In this document: piece by piece, positions 9,895 through 35,753 of the stretch
Layout: the number at the start of each line of letters is the position of its first letter
Position numbering within the stretch: the stretch's first letter is position 1
Source: Octopus vulgaris
Lineage: Eukaryota
Reading direction: 5' to 3'
DNA: 64,000 bases
NCBI GenBank assembly: GCA_951406725.2
Contig: OX597826.1
Span: 52,080,001-52,144,000, forward strand
Program-made: the position numbers and the translations under genes
The notes under the pieces: model-generated
Told to the model about the DNA's origin: nothing
What the model saw: only the letters and a program-made list of their open reading frames with translations
Databases searched by the model: none

Positions 9895-11672
9895 GTTCTG
9901 CATCTCGTGTTGCTGGCATGTGTGCAGCATTTTGTGTTCTTTACTGCTGTTAGGAGTGTGTGAACTCTTCCCAGTACTGTATTGTGTTAGCTTTTTTTCT
10001 TTGAGATGTGGTGCTGTCTTTTATTGTGTAACTGCTTGTATTGTGTGCTGAGTGTGTAATGCTTTGGTTTTCTAGCTTGCTGGTGCGAGTTTATTTCACT
10101 GGGTAAATGCTTTATAGAGTGTGTTTTGCATTTGTGGGTTGTTTTGTTCAGGTTGTATTATTGGATTGATAATATCTTGCGTAGGATGTGGGCTGTTCCT
10201 AGCAGGACTATTTTTTGGACAGCATAGTGTTGAGGATCAAGGTATAGCTTCTGCAGTGTTGTTCATATGATATTTTATTATGCCCAATGCTCCAATTATT
10301 ATGAGTATTGTTTTTACCTTCATGCCCCACATTTTGAATTCTTCAATTTTAAGGCTTTTGTACTTCGACTATTTCTCCTATTTTGACAATATTTTGATCA
10401 GGGGTGAGTACAGTGTCCGTCAGTAAGCAAGTGTTTTTCCCCCCATTCATTGACTATTATGTCTGGGCGATTAGCTTTTGTTTCTTGCTTGGTTTGAACC
10501 TGCATACTCCAAATGATCGTGACCTGATCTTTGTCTTGTACCTTGCTTGGCTCATGCTTATATTACCTGCTGTCAGTTTTGATGTTGTAATGTTGGCATA
10601 TTTTCCAGTGGATATAACTGTTTACTTACTTTATGGTGTCTGCATACATATTCAGACTTGGAAAGAACTGGACAGCCCGAGATGATGTGGTCAATTGTTT
10701 CATTGTGCTGGTTGCATATTCTGCATTTGGTGTTGAGGCTTTTGTCATTATTTTGTTTTTATAATTGTCTGTTGTCAAGCATTGGTCTTGTGCAGCGAGA
10801 ATCAGTCCTTCCGTTTCAGCTTTTAGTCCTGGGCTTTTGAGCTATTGTTGGCTTTTACTTAGGCTCTCTTCGTCTTTGTCAAGCCTTGCGGGGTTCTGAC
10901 CATGAAGCGGTTTTTTTCTCTATATCTTCTTCAGTGTCTTTTGTCATTCAGTTTTCATGTTGATCTTTGTCCCTTTGACCATTTCTGCTATGTTGTCATC
11001 TGAGATCAGTGTACTTTGCTTCTGTTTTGTATTTTGTCACCTACTTTCGTATAGAGAAAAGCGTTTTATTTTTCCATCTCATGTTGCATTACAACATGCA
11101 GTAGTCTTCTCTTTTTTAGTCCAACTGTTGTTATTTTATAATGGTTTTCTATTTGTATCCGGCCACGGGCTCCTTCTGCGTCTGCTTTGGAGTGGTAACT
11201 TTGATACTCAGTAGTTTTCTGGTTTTTCTACCTAGGTTTCTCAATTCACTGATCTTCCAGTTTATTATGTTGAAGCGGTGACTGGTATGGCTAGCATGTT
11301 TGTCCCTATTATCTTATTTTAATCATTAAATTCACAGTTTAATATTAGTCTAACTCTTGTGTAATACTCTCTCCTAATTTTCTCTTTCATTCCTATTTCT
11401 TTTATTCCTAGATATTTGTATGGGCGGTTGTGGTCTAATTCTCTAATTTCTGTGTCTATGTCGAGTGCAGTGTTTTCAGTGCTGAATAATTTACCTCTAC
11501 TCGGTGTGATTCTGGCACATTTGTCCAGCTCCGTGCTCATTCCGACGTCATTCCTGAAACTCTGAACAACTTTGATAAGATTTCTCTGTTCCATGGTGCT
11601 TTTAGCGTAAAGTTTTACGTCATCCATGTGCAGGAAACGGCTTACTTTTTGTCTATAGCACCTATAACCCAT
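9895..11672 (-). mobile_element. 5'-truncated decayed R4/Dong-like retrotransposon
   Basis: LHMDDVKLYAK, LDKCA, YKYLGI, REYYTRVRLIL; C-terminus VQKIVLLGTAHILRKIL at about 10170-10220. 5' end abuts (TTA)n(TTG)n. Confidence 0.82.
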
Positions 11673-12412
11673 TGTTATTATTATTATTATTATTATTATT
11701 GTTGTTGTTGTTGTTGTTGTTGTTGTAAATGTCGTTGTTCTTGTAATTATTATGCTTCTTAAGAATGAAAATGTATGATTAAAGTAGATTGATTTTGCTA
11801 CTTATACAATCAAATCGTCAACTAAATTTAAAATGAATCTTTCATAAATGAATATAGAAATCATTTCGCGAAATTTGTTCTCTGAGAAGAAGGAGAAAAG
11901 CAGAAGGAATAATTGAGAAGTATCTTTGTAGGCGACATATTACAATTGATGTTATCCTTAACACGTCAACGACCATCGTTTGTAAAATATTAGGTACTAA
12001 AATTTTTATGCATATTTTATTGTTTTCACTTGATATTAATATCATTATTCTGATTATTATAACTTGTTATATCGTATCAAAGTAGGATCAGGCTATGTAC
12101 TTCACACACACACATGTATGATTGTCTGTCCGAGTTAAAATAAGTTTTTCAAAGACAACCCTACAAACACTTATACCCATCCCAAGACGTTCCACCCTTT
12201 AGGTTATGTCACGGTGCTGAGCAACCTGGCTAAGGGTGAAATTCAGAGCTGACTGTCAAATAAATATCCAACCAATGTACCCAGTTTCTTAAGTTCTATA
12301 TCGGATAATGTTTACATTATCCAAAAGTTATTTATGCATTCTTAATATAGTTTACATTTCATTACGATATACTTACGTACATATCTACATACATGTGTGA
12401 TTGACATACAAA

Positions 12413-22390: not shown

Positions 22391-22457
<67 letters not shown>

Positions 22458-22547
22458 ATAAAACGGTAAGATAACAAAAGAAAGAAAGAGACCTCAATAT
22501 TATGTAAATAGAGGAAATTTATCTATACAATATGTTACATTACTCGG

Positions 22548-22621
22548 TAGTCAAGATAAAACTCTGAGTTTCAGATGCCGAAGTGGAAATCCACAACACC
22601 ATCTCTTCGGTTATCTGGCTA
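22548..22621 (-). ncRNA. Hammerhead-ribozyme-like motif (copy 1)
   Basis: Identical to 25138-25211. Confidence 0.65.
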
Positions 22622-22812
22622 TTTGAAAACGTTATGAAAAAATACCGTTAAAAATGAAGGGAAATTACTCTGTTATAACTCTGCTTTGCCTGCGTACTTA
22701 TACATCGCTCGCATTTTTCGTCATAAAAATTATATAAAAATACATAAAAAAATATATAAAAATATATAAAAATATATAAAATCTTCTTGGGACATAACAC
22801 AGAAAGCATGTT

Positions 22813-24938
22813 CTATCCGTTTTCTTTAGGGGACCAAAAACGTAACAGAAATTTAGTCACATGTGGGCATGATCCGAAAAGTTCTGTCCTTGTATTTAGA
22901 CATGTGGTAGGGTCTAAGCTGCTTTTCCAGATAAGCCATCTCTCCATGTCGCATAAACCGCACCTTCCGCTGCCGTTAGTATAGGGCTTACATCTGGCCA
23001 AAATCTTCCATTGTATGTTATAATCGACACCTTTATCTCTTAAAGACCAAATATGATTGGATAATTGTGTCGCTTTTCTTTTGTTCCAGTGCCTAAAGCT
23101 CAAAGTGTGGTTATTGAACCTGGCCTTGAAATTACCCTCTGTCAGGCCCACGTATTTCTTCGTCAAAACGGTGTCTTTAGTGGTTATAGAGTTTACGGTA
23201 GCCTCATATATGATGGTCTTGGACATGCAAGCTCCATTTAGCGGGCACAATTCTTTATTCCTGCATGAACAGCTGTTTTCTTCTTGTGTTTTTTGTATGT
23301 TATGATTGATTATGTTTTTAAAATTGGTAGTTGAACTAAAACTAATTTTTAAATTGTGTCTATTGAAGAGTTTCCTATAAGCATGGTTAACTGGAAAATG
23401 TCTATCTATCAGTGCTAGGAAATATTTACCTATATTGAAGGCCACCTCGGGTGAGTAAGGGGGCGTAAACCAGATGACCTTCCTATTTCTATTATTCCTT
23501 TTCCTTATTGTTGGGCTGGTGATAGGTGTATATTTTATTTTTTCGCTAAAACCACTATCTTTTAAAGCTTTATTATAAACTGGGGCAACGCTATTGAAGA
23601 TGTCCTCATTAGATGAGAGGCTAGAAATCCTCTTACTAATATTTTTAACTAAATTTTTGAATACTATAGGGGGATGGCATGAACCTACATTAATATAACT
23701 TAGTCTATCATTGGGCTTCCTATAAGGCTTATAAATATTATTATTAAGATCTAAGGAAACGTCTAAGAAATTGACAACCGTCAGGTTAGTGTCTATAGTT
23801 ATACTAAGTCCGAAGTGTTTCATTAACTGGATAATATCCTTCCTAAAACGATCTTGTGCTGGTCCATTTGTATTAGCTGTTAAGGCGAGGGCATCATCTT
23901 TGTAGATGGCGAAATGTACGTTAGGGAATGTCTTACTGAAGGTATCTAGGAGAAAGAGTCCAATTAGATCACAGATGCCTGCCCCATCATATGAACCCAT
24001 GCTCACATCGAAAGCGCCCTCCGTGTCGGTGTTTTTTACCCACTTTGCATTCTCACTGAAAAGTAATGTCTTTCTAGCATGGAAGATTATATCCTTATCA
24101 TTGGTACTAATTTCTATGAAGTCACTAGCGAAGATTAGGGCTTTATCTAGCAGTTCTTTAGAGATAGAGGCATAAAAATCAACAATATCGAATTGTGTAA
24201 ACCTCGCTTTTTTCTTATTCTTAATAGCTTTAAACCAGTCTACGACTTCTATACTATTGGACCATTGCACTAGCCTAGTATCGGTCTTAATTTTCGTATT
24301 TATTTTATCTAAAATTTCTTTGCTAATAATCCCTAGTTCTGACTTGGCTGGGTTGATAAGCCTACATTTAGGATTGGAAAGGAAGTTTTCTTTGTGGTCT
24401 TTAATAGTAATAAAGGCCTCTTTTTGGGGGAGGGTTTCTATTTTTTTATCTAATTTAAGTTTAGCGGCGATGACGCTAGCTTCTTTATTAATTTCGTTAT
24501 ATGTCTGTGCCCTAGCCTTAGTATAATTATTAATGATGCTGTTGTGTAAGAGTTGTGTGTATTTGCTGTTATCTACCAGGTATAAGTTCTTGGTTTTATC
24601 CGAAAAAAGTGCTTTTTTCTTGGAGCTTTTTATATGATCAATATCTTTCTTCAATTTATGTTGGAAATTGTTAAAAGACTTACGAAACTTTATTTTGCTC
24701 ATGATCTTCAGCAGGTCCGCTTCGAAATCTTCCAAGCCTTTAATCCTAGGAGGGAATTTTTGGATTTTATCCGATAGCAAATGTTTTCCTTGGTGTTCGC
24801 TTCTGTGTCAAAAAAGAAAGCCTTCCATCTCATACGCTTAATTACATCAGTAATTTTTTGCAGAAGTTTCTTAGAGTAAAAATCCTTTGATGGGATCGGT
24901 ATATTTTTCATAGAATAATCTATGTGATATGCGTCCAT
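22813..24938 (-). CDS. PLE reverse transcriptase + Cys-rich linker + C-terminal GIY-YIG endonuclease, split by a single 1-nt frameshift (about 708 aa if repaired)
   Basis: ORF 24708-24938 (MDAYHIDYSMKNIPIPSK...IKRMRWKAFFF) overlaps ORF 22813-24780. Motifs: RT FDIVDFYASI, MGSYDGA, IYKDD, VNFLDVSLDL; linker CSCRNKELCPLNGAC; GIY-YIG IIYEATV...KYVGLTE..FKARFNNH; C-terminal CGLC...CPH. Adding one A to the A5 run (T-run 24757-24761) joins the frames as ...IKSKKFPPRIK... Confidence 0.88.
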
Positions 24939-25042
24939 ATTAGATTCTTTTGTTTGTGAGAGTCCTCAACCGATGTTAGGCGATAATCCCAAAAAGGTCG
25001 TATTAGCTCTTAGTTGAGAATAACGTCGTCCGGGAGGTGATT

Positions 25043-27124
25043 TATTGATAAAACGGTAAGATAACAAAAGAAAGAAAGAGACCTCAATATTATGTAAATA
25101 GAGGAAATTTATCTATACAATATGTTACATTACTCGGTAGTCAAGATAAAACTCTGAGTTTCAGATGCCGAAGTGGAAATCCACAACACCATCTCTTCGG
25201 TTATCTGGCTATTTGAAAACGTTATGAAAAAATACCGTTAAAAATGAAGGGAAATTACTCTGTTATAACTCTGCTTTGCCTGCGTACTTATACATCGCTC
25301 GCATTTTTCGTCATAAAAATTATATAAAAATACATAAAAAAATATATAAAAATATATAAAAATATATAAAATCTTCTTGGGACATAACACAGAAAGCATG
25401 TTCTATCCGTTTTCTTTAGGGGACCAAAAACGCAACAGAAATTTAGTCACATGTGGGCATGATCCGAAAAGTTCTGTCCTTGTATTTAGACATGTGGTAG
25501 GGTCTAAGCTGCTTTTCCAGATAAGCCATCTCTCCATGTCGCATAAACCGCACCTTCCGCTGCCGTTAGTATAGGGCTTACATCTGGCCAAAATCTTCCA
25601 TTGTATGTTATAATCGACACCTTTATCTCTTAAAGACCAAATATGATTGGATAATTGTGTCGCTTTTCTTTTGTTCCAGTGCCTAAAGCTCAAAGTGTGG
25701 TTATTGAACCTGGCCTTGAAATTACCCTCTGTCAGGCCCACGTATTTCTTCGTCAAAACGGTGTCTTTAGTGGTTATAGAGTTTACGGTAGCCTCATATA
25801 TGATGGTCTTGGACATGCAAGCTCCATTTAGCGGGCACAATTCTTTATTCCTGCATGAACAGCTGTTTTCTTCTTGTGTTTTTTGTATGTTATGATTGAT
25901 TATGTTTTTAAAATTGGTAGTTGAACTAAAACTAATTTTTAAATTGTGTCTATTGAAGAGTTTCCTATAAGCATGGTTAACTGGAAAATGTCTATCTATC
26001 AGTGCTAGGAAATATTTACCTATATTGAAGGCCACCTCGGGTGAGTAAGGGGGCGTAAACCAGATGACCTTCCTATTTCTATTATTCCTTTTCCTTATTG
26101 TTGGGCTGGTGATAGGTGTATATTTTATTTTTTCGCTAAAACCACTATCTTTTAAAGCTTTATTATAAACTGGGGCAACGCTATTGAAGATGTCCTCATT
26201 AGATGAGAGGCTAGAAATCCTCTTACTAATATTTTTAACTAAATTTTTGAATACTATAGGGGGATGGCATGAACCTACATTAATATAACTTAGTCTATCA
26301 TTGGGCTTCCTATAAGGCTTATAAATATTATTATTAAGATCTAAGGAAACGTCTAAGAAATTGACAACCGTCAGGTTAGTGTCTATAGTTATACTAAGTC
26401 CGAAGTGTTTCATTAACTGGATAATATCCTTCCTAAAACGATCTTGTGCTGGTCCATTTGTATTAGCTGTTAAGGCGAGGGCATCATCTTTGTAGATGGC
26501 GAAATGTACGTTAGGGAATGTCTTACTGAAGGTATCTAGGAGAAAGAGTCCAATTAGATCACAGATGCCTGCCCCATCATATGAACCCATGCTCACATCG
26601 AAAGCGCCCTCCGTGTCGGTGTTTTTTACCCACTTTGCATTCTCACTGAAAAGTAATGTCTTTCTAGCATGGAAGATTATATCCTTATCATTGGTACTAA
26701 TTTCTATGAAGTCACTAGCGAAGATTAGGGCTTTATCTAGCAGTTCTTTAGAGATAGAGGCATAAAAATCAACAATATCGAATTGTGTAAACCTCGCTTT
26801 TTTCTTATTCTTAATAGCTTTAAACCAGTCTACGACTTCTATACTATTGGACCATTGCACTAGCCTAGTATCGGTCTTAATTTTCGTATTTATTTTATCT
26901 AAAATTTCTTTGCTAATAATCCCTAGTTCTGACTTGGCTGGGTTGATAAGCCTACATTTAGGATTGGAAAGGAAGTTTTCTTTGTGGTCTTTAATAGTAA
27001 TAAAGGCCTCTTTTTGGGGGAGGGTTTCTATTTTTTTATCTAATTTAAGTTTAGCGGCGATGACGCTAGCTTCTTTATTAATTTCGTTATATGTCTGTGC
27101 CCTAGCCTTAGTATAATTATTAAT
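25043..27124 (-). mobile_element. 5'-truncated tandem PLE copy 2 (long pseudo-LTR upstream of copy 1)
   Basis: Matches 22453-24534; the only difference I found is C at 25433 vs T at 22843 (synonymous TTG/TTA). Breaks off after ...GTATAATTATTAAT. Confidence 0.9.
25138..25211 (-). ncRNA. Hammerhead-ribozyme-like motif (copy 2)
   Basis: Exact reverse complement of 28841-28914. Confidence 0.65.
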
Positions 27125-27126
27125 TA

Positions 27127-28942
27127 TAGGGATTATTAGCAAAGAAATTTTAGATAAAATAAATACGAAAATTAAGACCGATACTAGGCTAGTGCAATGG
27201 TCCAATAGTATAGAAGTCGTAGACTGGTTTAAAGCTATTAAGAATAAGAAAAAAGCGAGGTTTACACAATTCGATATTGTTGATTTTTATGCCTCTATCT
27301 CTAAAGAACTGCTAGATAAAGCCCTAATCTTCGCTAGTGACTTCATAGAAATTAGTACCAATGATAAGGATATAATCTTCCATGCTAGAAAGACATTACT
27401 TTTCAGTGAGAATGCAAAGTGGGTAAAAAACACCGACACGGAGGGCGCTTTCGATGTGAGCATGGGTTCATATGATGGGGCAGGCATCTGTGATCTAATT
27501 GGACTCTTTCTCCTAGATACCTTCAGTAAGACATTCCCTAACGTACATTTCGCCATCTACAAAGATGATGCCCTCGCCTTAACAGCTAATACAAATGGAC
27601 CAGCACAAGATCGTTTTAGGAAGGATATTATCCAGTTAATGAAACACTTCGGACTTAGTATAACTATAGACACTAACCTGACGGTTGTCAATTTCTTAGA
27701 CGTTTCCTTAGATCTTAATAATAATATTTATAAGCCTTATAGGAAGCCCAATGATAGACTAAGTTATATTAATGTAGGTTCATGCCATCCCCCTATAGTA
27801 TTCAAAAATTTAGTTAAAAATATTAGTAAGAGGATTTCTAGCCTCTCATCTAATGAGGACATCTTCAATAGCGTTGCCCCAGTTTATAATAAAGCTTTAA
27901 AAGATAGTGGTTTTAGCGAAAAAATAAAATATACACCTATCACCAGCCCAACAATAAGGAAAAGGAATAATAGAAATAGGAAGGTCATCTGGTTTACGCC
28001 CCCTTACTCACCCGAGGTGGCCTTCAATATAGGTAAATATTTCCTAGCACTGATAGATAGACATTTTCCAGTTAACCATGCTTATAGGAAACTCTTCAAT
28101 AGACACAATTTAAAAATTAGTTTTAGTTCAACTACCAATTTTAAAAACATAATCAATCATAACATACAAAAAACACAAGAAGAAAACAGCTGTTCATGCA
28201 GGAATAAAGAATTGTGCCCGCTAAATGGAGCTTGCATGTCCAAGACCATCATATATGAGGCTACCGTAAACTCTATAACCACTAAAGACACCGTTTTGAC
28301 GAAGAAATACGTGGGCCTGACAGAGGGTAATTTCAAGGCCAGGTTCAATAACCACACTTTGAGCTTTAGGCACTGGAACAAAAGAAAAGCGACACAATTA
28401 TCCAATCATATTTGGTCTTTAAGAGATAAAGGTGTCGATTATAACATACAATGGAAGATTTTGGCCAGATGTAAGCCCTATACTAACGGCAGCGGAAGGT
28501 GCGGTTTATGCGACATGGAGAGATGGCTTATCTGGAAAAGCAGCTTAGACCCTACCACATGTCTAAATACAAGGACAGAACTTTTCGGATCATGCCCACA
28601 TGTGACTAAATTTCTGTTACGTTTTTGGTCCCCTAAAGAAAACGGATAGAACATGCTTTCTGTGTTATGTCCCAAGAAGATTTTATATATTTTTATATAT
28701 TTTTATATATTTTTTTATGTATTTTTATATAATTTTTATGACGAAAAATGCGAGCGATGTATAAGTACGCAGGCAAAGCAGAGTTATAACAGAGTAATTT
28801 CCCTTCATTTTTAACGGTATTTTTTCATAACGTTTTCAAATAGCCAGATAACCGAAGAGATGGTGTTGTGGATTTCCACTTCGGCATCTGAAACTCAGAG
28901 TTTTATCTTGACTACCGAGTAATGTAACATATTGTATAGATA
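27127..28942 (+). mobile_element. Inverted, 5'-truncated and 3'-shortened PLE copy 3
   Basis: Reverse complement of 25110-26925. ORF 27192-28649 encodes the same RT-GIY-YIG C-terminal sequence. Ends ...ATTGTATAGATA into (TA)n, 67 nt short of the end of copies 1 and 2. Confidence 0.9.
28841..28914 (+). ncRNA. Type I hammerhead-ribozyme-like motif in PLE 3' region (copy 3)
   Basis: Stem I AGATAA/TTATCT (extendable by TAG/CTA); core CCGAAGA (canonical CUGANGA); stem II GATG...CATC with inner GTGG-ATTT-CCAC; GAAA; very short palindromic stem III CTC-A-GAG; GUU triplet with predicted cleavage after 28902. Folded by eye. Confidence 0.65.
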
Positions 28943-29338
28943 TATATATATATATATATATATATGAGTGTGTGTGTTGTGTACGCACACAACTCATGCA
29001 CACACAAACTATGCAGATTGGAGTATGCATATTATATATATTCATATATACATACATATATATATACATTCATATATACACACACACACACAAGCATATA
29101 CATATATGTATACATACATGTATATATACATATATATGTATATTTACATACAAAAATGAACATGTCTAGGTATGTAACTACATGCATGAGAATACATACA
29201 TAAAACATAGATATCTGCATATACATACATACAAACGAACAAAATTACACTTGTTGAGGTTGAAATTCTAATGAAGGAGACTTGGATCTTGGTTAGAAAC
29301 CAGTTCTTATATATATATATATATATATATATACACAA

Positions 29339-34397: not shown

Positions 34398-35432
34398 TGT
34401 AGCTACTAGAATAAGAATAGGCTGGGCAAAGTTCTGAGAATCCCTACATCTGTTGGTAATTAAAGGCCTCTCTCTCAAAGTGAAAGGTAGATTGTAAGAT
34501 GCCTGTGTGTGAACAGCCATGCTACATGGCAGTAAAACATGGGCTGTGATTGCTGAGAACATGCATAGGTCTGAAACAAATGAAGCTAGTATGCTTTGCT
34601 GGATTTGTAGTGTCCAGTTTGCATGTACAACAGAGTGCAAGCGTCTTGAGAGAAAAGTTGGGCATAAGAGGCATCAGATGTGGTGTGCAGGAGAGATAAC
34701 TGTAGTGGTGTGGTCATGTGATGCATATTGATAAGGACAGCAGTGTAAAGAGGGGCTGATCTCTAAATGTGGAGGGAACCTGTGAAAGAGGTAGACCCAG
34801 GAAGACACGGGACAAGGTTATGAAGCATGATCTTTGAATATTGGTCCTCACAGAGGCAATGACAAGTAATAGAGACCTTTGGCGATATGCTGTGCTTGAG
34901 AAGATCTGTCAATTCAAGTGGAATCTTAGTCATGGCTGATGCCAATGTCACATTACTGGCACCCATGTCAGTGGCATGTGAAAAGCACCCTTCAAATGCT
35001 GGACCTCATGAAGGTGATGACAAGTGACCAAGACTGTTCCTGTCAAGCCAAGTTAAATTGTAGTCATGGTCGATGCCAGTGTTACATAAGTGGCACCCAT
35101 GCAGGTTCCATGTAAAAGGCACCCTTCAAACATTGGGCCTCGTGGAGGTGATACTGTTAGTGATATGCCTTGCATGAGAAGATTCATCAAGCCAAGTGAA
35201 ATTGTAATCATGGCCAATGCTGGTGTCACATAACTGGCACCCATACCAGTGGCATGTAAAATGCATCCATTACACTCTTGGAGTGGATGGTGTTAGGAAG
35301 GGCATCCAGCTGCAGAAACCATGCCAAATCAGATTGGAACTTGGTAGAGCTTTCCAGCTTACCAGTTTCAGTCAAAGTGTCTAACTCATACCAACATGGA
35401 AGGCAGATGCTAAATGATGATGATCATCATCA
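34398..35432 (+). mobile_element. RTE-like 3' fragment with 3' UTR ending in (GAT)n
   Basis: RIRIGWAKF, GLSLKVKGRL, MLHGSKTWAV; collinear with 31495-31960. Confidence 0.8.
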
Positions 35433-35521
35433 TTTAGCATCTGCCTTTTGTACTGTCCCCTCTATGTTCGCCCCTAGTGGGTAATAATAAAACAGATGAT
35501 GATGATCATCATCATCTTCTG

Positions 35522-35753
35522 AAGCACAGCATATCGCCAAAGGTCTCTGTCACTTGTCATTGCCTCTGTGAAGCCCAATATTCGAAGATCATGCTTCATA
35601 ACCTTGTCCCATGTCTTCTTGGGTCTACCTCTTTCACAGGTTCCTTCCACACTTAGAGATCAGCACTTCTTTACACTGCTGTCCTCATCAATACGCATCA
35701 TATGACCATACCACTACAGTCATCTCTCCAGCACACCACATCTAATGCCTCTT
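35522..35753 (-). mobile_element. Inverted RTE-like fragment closely matching 34666-34897
   Basis: Reverse-complement alignment by eye shows few substitutions. Confidence 0.8.

Follow-up and report, generated by a model that had tools for sequence, protein, structure and literature searches.

How both 3' ends of one retroelement insertion come to face outward into a single (TA)n microsatellite is the question raised by a Penelope-like element of Octopus vulgaris, found in a window of 64,000 nucleotides (assembly GCA_951406725.2, contig OX597826.1, positions 52,080,001 to 52,144,000 of the forward strand; window positions below count from its first letter). The first-pass annotation had taken this head-to-head locus for a very young snapshot of two-ended priming, in which two cDNAs were primed independently. 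Priming at both ends, a very young age and (TA)n targeting by the family are supported, but the locus is no special snapshot: it is a young, ordinary insertion of a Hydra-type Penelope-like element, which contributes little alone and gains its value from the statistics of its family. These indicate that two-ended priming is coupled rather than independent, because the pairing of a long with a short 3' end is near strict and the two arms share alleles.

The arrangement of the locus (Table 1) is as first described: one full 2590-bp unit (copy A, which defines unit positions 1-2590 in the sense direction), a seamless 5'-truncated tandem copy (B) and an inverted 5'-truncated copy (C). Copy B abuts copy A directly and differs from it at a single position of their shared stretch (22843 T, 25433 C), and copies A and C are identical over all 1,816 bp. 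The outward 3' ends of both arms run into (TA)n, ending in ...TTATCAATA and ...GTATAGATA, again as previously read. Four features had been overlooked, namely the fixed ~68-nt tail difference (copy C stops short of the final ~68 letters of the unit), the split of the reading frame of copy A by a run of five A, the CCGAAGA core of the hammerhead-like motif and the 8-bp hairpin at the B/C joint. Letters 27125-27126, foreign to both arms, complete this hairpin and would represent a snap-back templated insertion of the kind known from end joining. One difference in ~5,980 lineage-sites, combined with a rate implied by the accessible part of PMC13282606, gives an illustrative age of ~46,000 years (1,000-260,000).

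A head-to-head insertion with one long and one short end is the usual landing pattern of this family. Exact-match counts in the genome, which are hence lower bounds, amount to at least 2,243 for an internal 28-mer, at least 1,355 for long and at least 1,044 for short 3' ends on TA, and at least 152 for tandem joints. Two sets of loci were drawn from contig C1. Set 1 (59 loci) was taken by position from the first listed matches of the internal 28-mer, so that the test for (TA)n is not circular, with the last three clusters shifted to set 2; the further 60 loci of set 2 were chosen by end patterns. Another 17 full-length loci served for allele and arm comparisons only, and from one locus (L147) a third, older piece was removed by hand. 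Insertion into (TA)n is family-wide, in the sampled loci and in the end counts. Set 1 contains 35 clean head-to-head insertions, 23 single-arm insertions (12 long, 11 short) and one interrupted locus; set 2 contains 39 clean head-to-head loci, 19 with a single end type, one complex and one too short for a match. Three of the "single" loci (L082, L116, L160) actually carry a tiny or scrambled short arm. The expectation that other copies would prefer (TA)n and lie head-to-head is thereby borne out, and the same two ends recur genome-wide.

The pairing of ends is the most telling of these statistics. Long pairs with short in 69 of the 74 clean head-to-head loci, four are unresolved, one is long/long and none is short/short (set 1: 31 long/short, three unresolved, one long/long; set 2: 38 long/short, one incompletely retrieved, no same-type pair). 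The long/long case (L075) is nested, with a single arm beside a short/long pair. Pairing by coordinates only on C1 0-198 Mb, which overlaps both sets, yields 49 long/short pairs among 49 outward pairs, with ~25 same-type pairs expected. The asymmetry is present in two older copies (L246, L247) as well. An inverted repeat occurs in 11 of 77 related metagenome loci, and three were inspected; one (L235) is incomplete, while the other two (L228, L234), both contigs from one related family, display the same asymmetry with a tail of ~70-80 nt.

Arms of one locus also share a donor haplotype. Polymorphic sites compared arm against arm are discordant in 9 of 276 cases, against ~82 expected (5/191 against 66.8 in the first set and 4/85 against 15.5 in the held-out one), and at all sites the arms of a locus differ by 0.15% in the first set and 0.36% in set 2, against 0.62% and 1.52%, respectively, for arms of different loci. 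Together with the absence of same-type pairs, among the 49 outward pairs and among the clean ones of the 74 loci alike, this concordance speaks against the claim that the two cDNAs were primed independently.

Reach was analyzed in 67 simple loci, after exclusion of two with complex joints. The short arm extends further 5' in 28 of them (by >50 nt in 16), the long arm leads by >50 nt in 22, and the arms stop within 50 nt of each other in 29. When both arms exceed 250 nt (n=37), seven pairs stop within 50 nt, compared with 1.7 after shuffling (p ~0.001), and in four loci (L031, L044, L045, L046) neither arm contains the other. Non-gapped joints overlap by at least 2 nt in 29/49 cases, against 17% for random pairs.

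The choice of start site is not set by ATA microhomology. An internal tract (unit 2263-2311) whose match to a TA primer equals that of the short site is almost unused, being an end in 2 cases against 1,243 read-throughs; one of the two (L244) is a genuine partner arm. ATA triplets number 104 per unit.

These pairing, donor, reach and site-choice results, with those on 5' ends and related copies, fit coupled twin priming on one element RNA at two fixed sites ~68 nt apart, a model that we judge slightly better than evenly probable. A linear, partly tandem transcript, which may start near unit 2419, would be bound at its 3' end by an element protein complex, probably a dimer, whose nuclease would open both (TA)n strands. 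Of the two 3'-OH groups, one would then begin synthesis from the long site and its partner from the short one, with the choice fixed by the complex and merely assisted by 3-8 nt of TA pairing. Both cDNAs would grow towards the 5' end of the RNA along one and the same sequence, with the leading cDNA displaced by the one behind it, until synthesis stops where the RNA ends or is broken, or at random. Their 3' ends would be joined via snap-back insertions or short microhomology, and fill-in would follow. Were one end to fail, an insertion with a single arm, long-ended or short-ended, would result. Work on Poseidon is part of the basis for proposing the dimer, the cut pattern and the strand displacement.

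As a wider proposal, Penelope-like elements may use programmed twin priming, in which one complex directs each cut strand to its own fixed site on a single RNA, two polymerases follow one another along this template and the cDNA ends are fused; we give this an even chance. In the literature searched, which lacked most subscription papers including older Penelope papers, we found no explicit coupled-priming model. Inverted copies, the one-sided tail and (TA)n targeting are already published. In its available text, PMC8557442 names the formation of tandem and inverted structures and the microsatellite bias as unanswered questions of Penelope transposition, and the accessible part of PMC11167929 describes the steps after first priming as unvalidated.

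Several observations weigh against coupled twin priming on one RNA. Start sites in vitro did not differ between strands and had no homology to the cut DNA, according to the available part of PMC11167929. The joint of the present locus is unbridged by the public contigs listed, and the pairing data come from one assembly and mostly from one contig. BLAST overlap inflates microhomology near a natural palindrome at unit 2404-2421 (for example in L111). Arm identity could come partly from gene conversion or assembly polishing, an account countered by one locus (L056) with 9 arm differences in 300 nt, none of them shared. Two loci (L035, L154) have two or three discordant sites each, which points to two donors at times. 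Finally, two RNAs of the same donor in one complex predict nearly the same outcome.

This last possibility, in which one complex binds two RNAs of the same donor locus in an asymmetric manner (for instance paired via the palindromic hammerhead stem III) and each RNA is read from one of the sites, is the strongest of the alternatives, and we regard it as unlikely but worth serious attention. The long/short rule and the shared alleles would follow if the RNAs were captured together at one donor, strand displacement would not be needed, and the discordant loci would be allowed; dimeric hammerheads have been proposed for these elements in the accessible text of PMC4209133. Two RNAs do not easily account for arm pairs whose stops lie within 50 nt although distant from the transcript start (7/37 against 1.7), and many active haplotypes would lead one to expect more mixed loci than ~2/81. 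The shared alleles and correlated stops are consistent with one RNA and cannot separate it from two RNAs of the same donor.

Fold-back, in which one strand folds and is copied and a staggered nuclease cut resolves the hairpin so that one side alone keeps the tail, combines the self-priming hypothesis of PMC3846280 with the nuclease-mediated resolution of PMC8557442, as far as the accessible parts of both describe them. It would account for shared alleles, near-palindromic joints (L112, L136), equal arm ends and the target-like letters of the short end GTATAGATA. A copy cannot exceed its template, however, yet either arm may lead by >50 nt; the frequency with which the short arm is the longer-reaching one excludes simple fold-back. 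The four loci with mutually non-contained arms and the common single-arm insertions with either end add to these difficulties, and we consider fold-back improbable.

That the inversion at this locus is an assembly artefact made by fold-back chimeric reads seems very improbable. No contig of the runs X3, X20, X1 and X9 bridges 27124-27127 among the matches listed (14 of 90; X3 ~80% read), even though X3 covers the unique left flank at a depth of ~50. No empty (TA)n allele was seen among the contigs listed, which cannot span long (TA)n, and it is the family pattern alone that speaks for the assembly of this joint. Dozens of loci that repeat a fixed 68-nt asymmetry, each with both ends on (TA)n, are not what chimeras would produce. 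Other inversion joints of the family, and both end types on TA, are present in contigs of X3 and X20, and the related-family metagenome contigs carry the same asymmetry. Equally hard to credit is independent priming at both break ends with ATA microhomology to the self-complementary (TA)n as its sole guide, for which the TA-like letters at both ends and the similar rates of each end type alone speak, and against which stand the lack of clean same-type pairs where ~35 were expected among the 69 resolved loci, the concordant alleles, the nearly unused internal TA match and the abundance of ATA triplets; to survive the pairing counts it would require that same-type pairs be lost selectively from genome or assembly.

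The first-pass annotation had further counted a ribozyme among the element's components. The predicted cleavage point of the hammerhead-like motif (unit 2427-2489) lies, by the usual numbering of hammerhead positions, between 22560 and 22559 (unit 2484), where one of 205 5' ends is found; hammerhead cleavage as the origin of 5' ends finds no support in this count. The motif agrees in layout with the Hydra table in the available text of PMC8557442, with a core of CCGAAGA rather than CUGANGA, an additional U ahead of GAAA and a palindromic stem III. Rfam returned no hammerhead match, only low-complexity microRNA matches, and folding of the hammerhead with the tail gave weak z-scores (-1.3, -1.6) and did not recover the active fold, results to which we attach no weight. 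The CCGA core is found in 159/161 sampled family matches and CTGA in none of the 161; conversely, CTGA is found in all 45 related loci with a motif match (77 related loci scanned). CTGA matches number 233 genome-wide, and the three inspected are all older copies. CTGA may be the ancestral core, but CpG decay yields the same letter, and L247 carries CCGA in one arm and CTGA in the other. The putative ribozyme may have lost activity while the element thrives.

The 5' ends cluster instead at unit 2400-2430, with a spike at 2419 (10/205) just past the TC in TCA/AAT, an initiator-like context that would place the transcript start at this position. An apparent 5' end at unit 2541 was discarded as an artefact of the search window. 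An extra GA or GAA stands before five of the 10 ends at 2419, in one of which the G may derive from the other arm. A reverse-copied cap can leave an extra G, and the added letters would be a trace of such copying. Arms that stop at unit 2419 with extra GA or GAA (L054, L095, L113, L132, L141) possibly carry a signature of cap copying and slippage, and mini head-to-head insertions of ~270 bp with stops at this position are common.

The encoded protein assigns the element to the Hydra clade. The unit is short (2,590 bp, <3 kb) with one open reading frame (ORF), as in that clade, and the ORF of 708 aa is intact in 16 of 25 near-full copies. The full copy at this locus is frameshifted by its run of five A; this run occurs in 7/43 copies and six A in most, contigs of all four runs have a longer A run, and slippage and assembly error are both possible. 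The protein has the motifs RWK (MRWKAFFF) and DKT instead of DKG (SDKTKN), the reverse transcriptase (RT) motif YKDD at 23904, the linker CxCx5C (CSCRNKELC) and C-terminal nuclease motifs IIY...YVG...R that are conserved among relatives; CCHH is absent, no Cys lies between IIY and YVG, and CxxC (CGLC) and CxH (CPH) lie next to the conserved E and N. The available text of PMC8557442 lists RWK, DKT, CxCx5C, a Cys-free nuclease core, CxxC and CxH for the Hydra clade; the C-terminal nuclease and the (TA)n target of the present element agree with this assignment. The Pfam match to GIY-YIG is weak (E=0.022, below the cut-off), and none was found for the 708-aa copy. The predicted protein model (pLDDT 93.7) has its best fold matches among reverse transcriptases and telomerases (TM 0.26-0.36), which alone do not confirm the nuclease. 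Scoring of 7,999 candidates gave 1,011 protein relatives, the best 120 at 42-52% identity, and a PDB sequence search returned one irrelevant match (E=0.28). Naiad and Chlamys were ruled out, as these require an N-terminal nuclease and the motifs here are C-terminal, and Penelope/Poseidon, Neptune and Nematis were ruled out by the lack of the CCHH nuclease motif and of DKG.

Judged by its sequence, the element is a new Hydra-type family, set apart from Hydra-1_Obim by the hammerhead and not by consensus alignment; it may already figure in the repeat library of PMC13282606 or among catalogued families. As described in the available parts of Craig et al. 2021 (PMC8557442), the Hydra clade including Hydra-1_Obim shares with this family a length of <3 kb, a single ORF, RWK/DKT, CxCx5C without CCHH, the CxxC and CxH motifs, the (TA)n target and, close to the 3' end, a hammerhead-type layout. 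Compared by its supplement row, the hammerhead sequence of Hydra-1_Obim is unlike the one found here. The family also differs in its tail (~68 nt, against 30-40 in the clade), in the CCGA core of its young copies and in a very large recent burst with intact ORFs. Among the runs listed, no RNA-labelled run holds the unit; contigs presumed to be RNA cover it and give no evidence on expression. Five runs labelled as three other organisms (X11, X12, X14, X16, X17) contain 83-86% of the unit's sampled words, and contigs of X11 and X14 carry the unit with 7-8 differences in 2,255 nt, a likeness that does not distinguish close relatives, label differences and transfer.

Canonical Penelope has the same architecture in the accessible text of PMC8557442 and PMC3846280, with a pseudo-LTR tandem, an inverted head-to-head truncated copy and often a tail at one end. 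There the tail is optional and explained by self-priming or nuclease resolution, whereas here a long end is almost always paired with a short one and the counts speak against fold-back. Poseidon PAc from anole, studied in vitro by Frangieh et al. 2024 (PMC11167929), starts at two adjacent internal sites that delimit the tail, cleaves and extends the two target strands, is predicted to form a dimer and can dispense with hammerhead cleavage, according to the part of that paper available. It belongs to another clade, its start sites are non-homologous to the target and show no strand bias, in contrast to the TA-like sites here, and the inverted insertion is not modelled in the same text. L1 twin priming, in the available text of bioRxiv 10.1101/2024.08.27.596794, resembles our proposal in that both nicks prime one RNA and the cDNA ends join by microcomplementarity; in L1 the second primer uses spurious positions that vary, and the arms mostly represent different RNA parts, while here the second site is fixed ~68 nt away, one sequence is copied into both arms and most products are two-armed.

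Some individual loci deserve separate mention. A 13.8-kb insertion (L071+L072, G000:C1:57208350-57223100) has one arm of four full units with a mixed haplotype, and its short-ended arm matches the two terminal units in register. This suggests that a mixed array was transcribed into a linear multimer, and one circular RNA template for tandem arrays was rejected for this locus in view of the mixed haplotypes. The arms of L060 (G000:C1:22212450-22216500) share 33 non-majority alleles that are mostly absent from other sampled loci, as might result from a decayed donor moved in trans or from arm-to-arm conversion. In L246 (1537-1656) and L161 the element's own 5' piece (unit 1-120) lies between the arms, suggesting a template jump at the joint. 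Elsewhere in the window, a 240-nt inverted pair (34666-35753; 92% complementary, 608 nt between) that brackets repeat-like sequence is unrelated to the Penelope unit, and another reverse transcriptase fragment (11319-11801, minus strand; LHMDDVKLY) is likely an old LINE.

Table 1. Coordinates of the Penelope-like insertion and its parts in the window
Feature	Position	Strand	Remark
Left half of (TA)n target	22397..22454	none	
Copy A, full 2,590-bp unit, terminates at long 3' end	22453..25042	-	
~68-nt tail, on the arm of copy A only	22453..22520	-	also 25043-25110 within tandem
Hammerhead-like motif, type I, variant core CCGAAGA	22554..22616	-	own descriptor, 0/300 shuffles
Same hammerhead-like motif, other copies	25144-25206 and 28846-28908	- and +	
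AT-rich tract of 10-bp repeats, 3' untranslated region, TA-primer match	22723..22781	-	
ORF, RT and C-terminal GIY-YIG-type motifs, frame split by A run at 24757-24761	22813..24938	-	
Copy B, 5'-truncated tandem unit, unit 509-2590	25043..27124	-	
Putative transcript start, unit 2419, TCA/AAT	25214	-	equivalents 22624, 28838; family 5'-end pile-up
Inversion joint with 8-bp hairpin TATAATTA-T-TAATTATA	27112..27128	none	
Copy C, inverted 5'-truncated arm, unit 708 to ~2522, terminates at short 3' end	27127..28942	+	
Right half of (TA)n target	28941..28964	none	

This family allows rival models of Penelope transposition to be compared by counting, and the numbers speak against fold-back and independent priming. 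Its compact intact 708-aa enzymes, which target (TA)n, suit biochemistry. If true, programmed twin priming would explain by one rule why these elements have an inverted copy, a tail on one side and palindromic joints, and this family, which has intact copies and more than a thousand nearly identical insertions, would be a ready system in which to test it.

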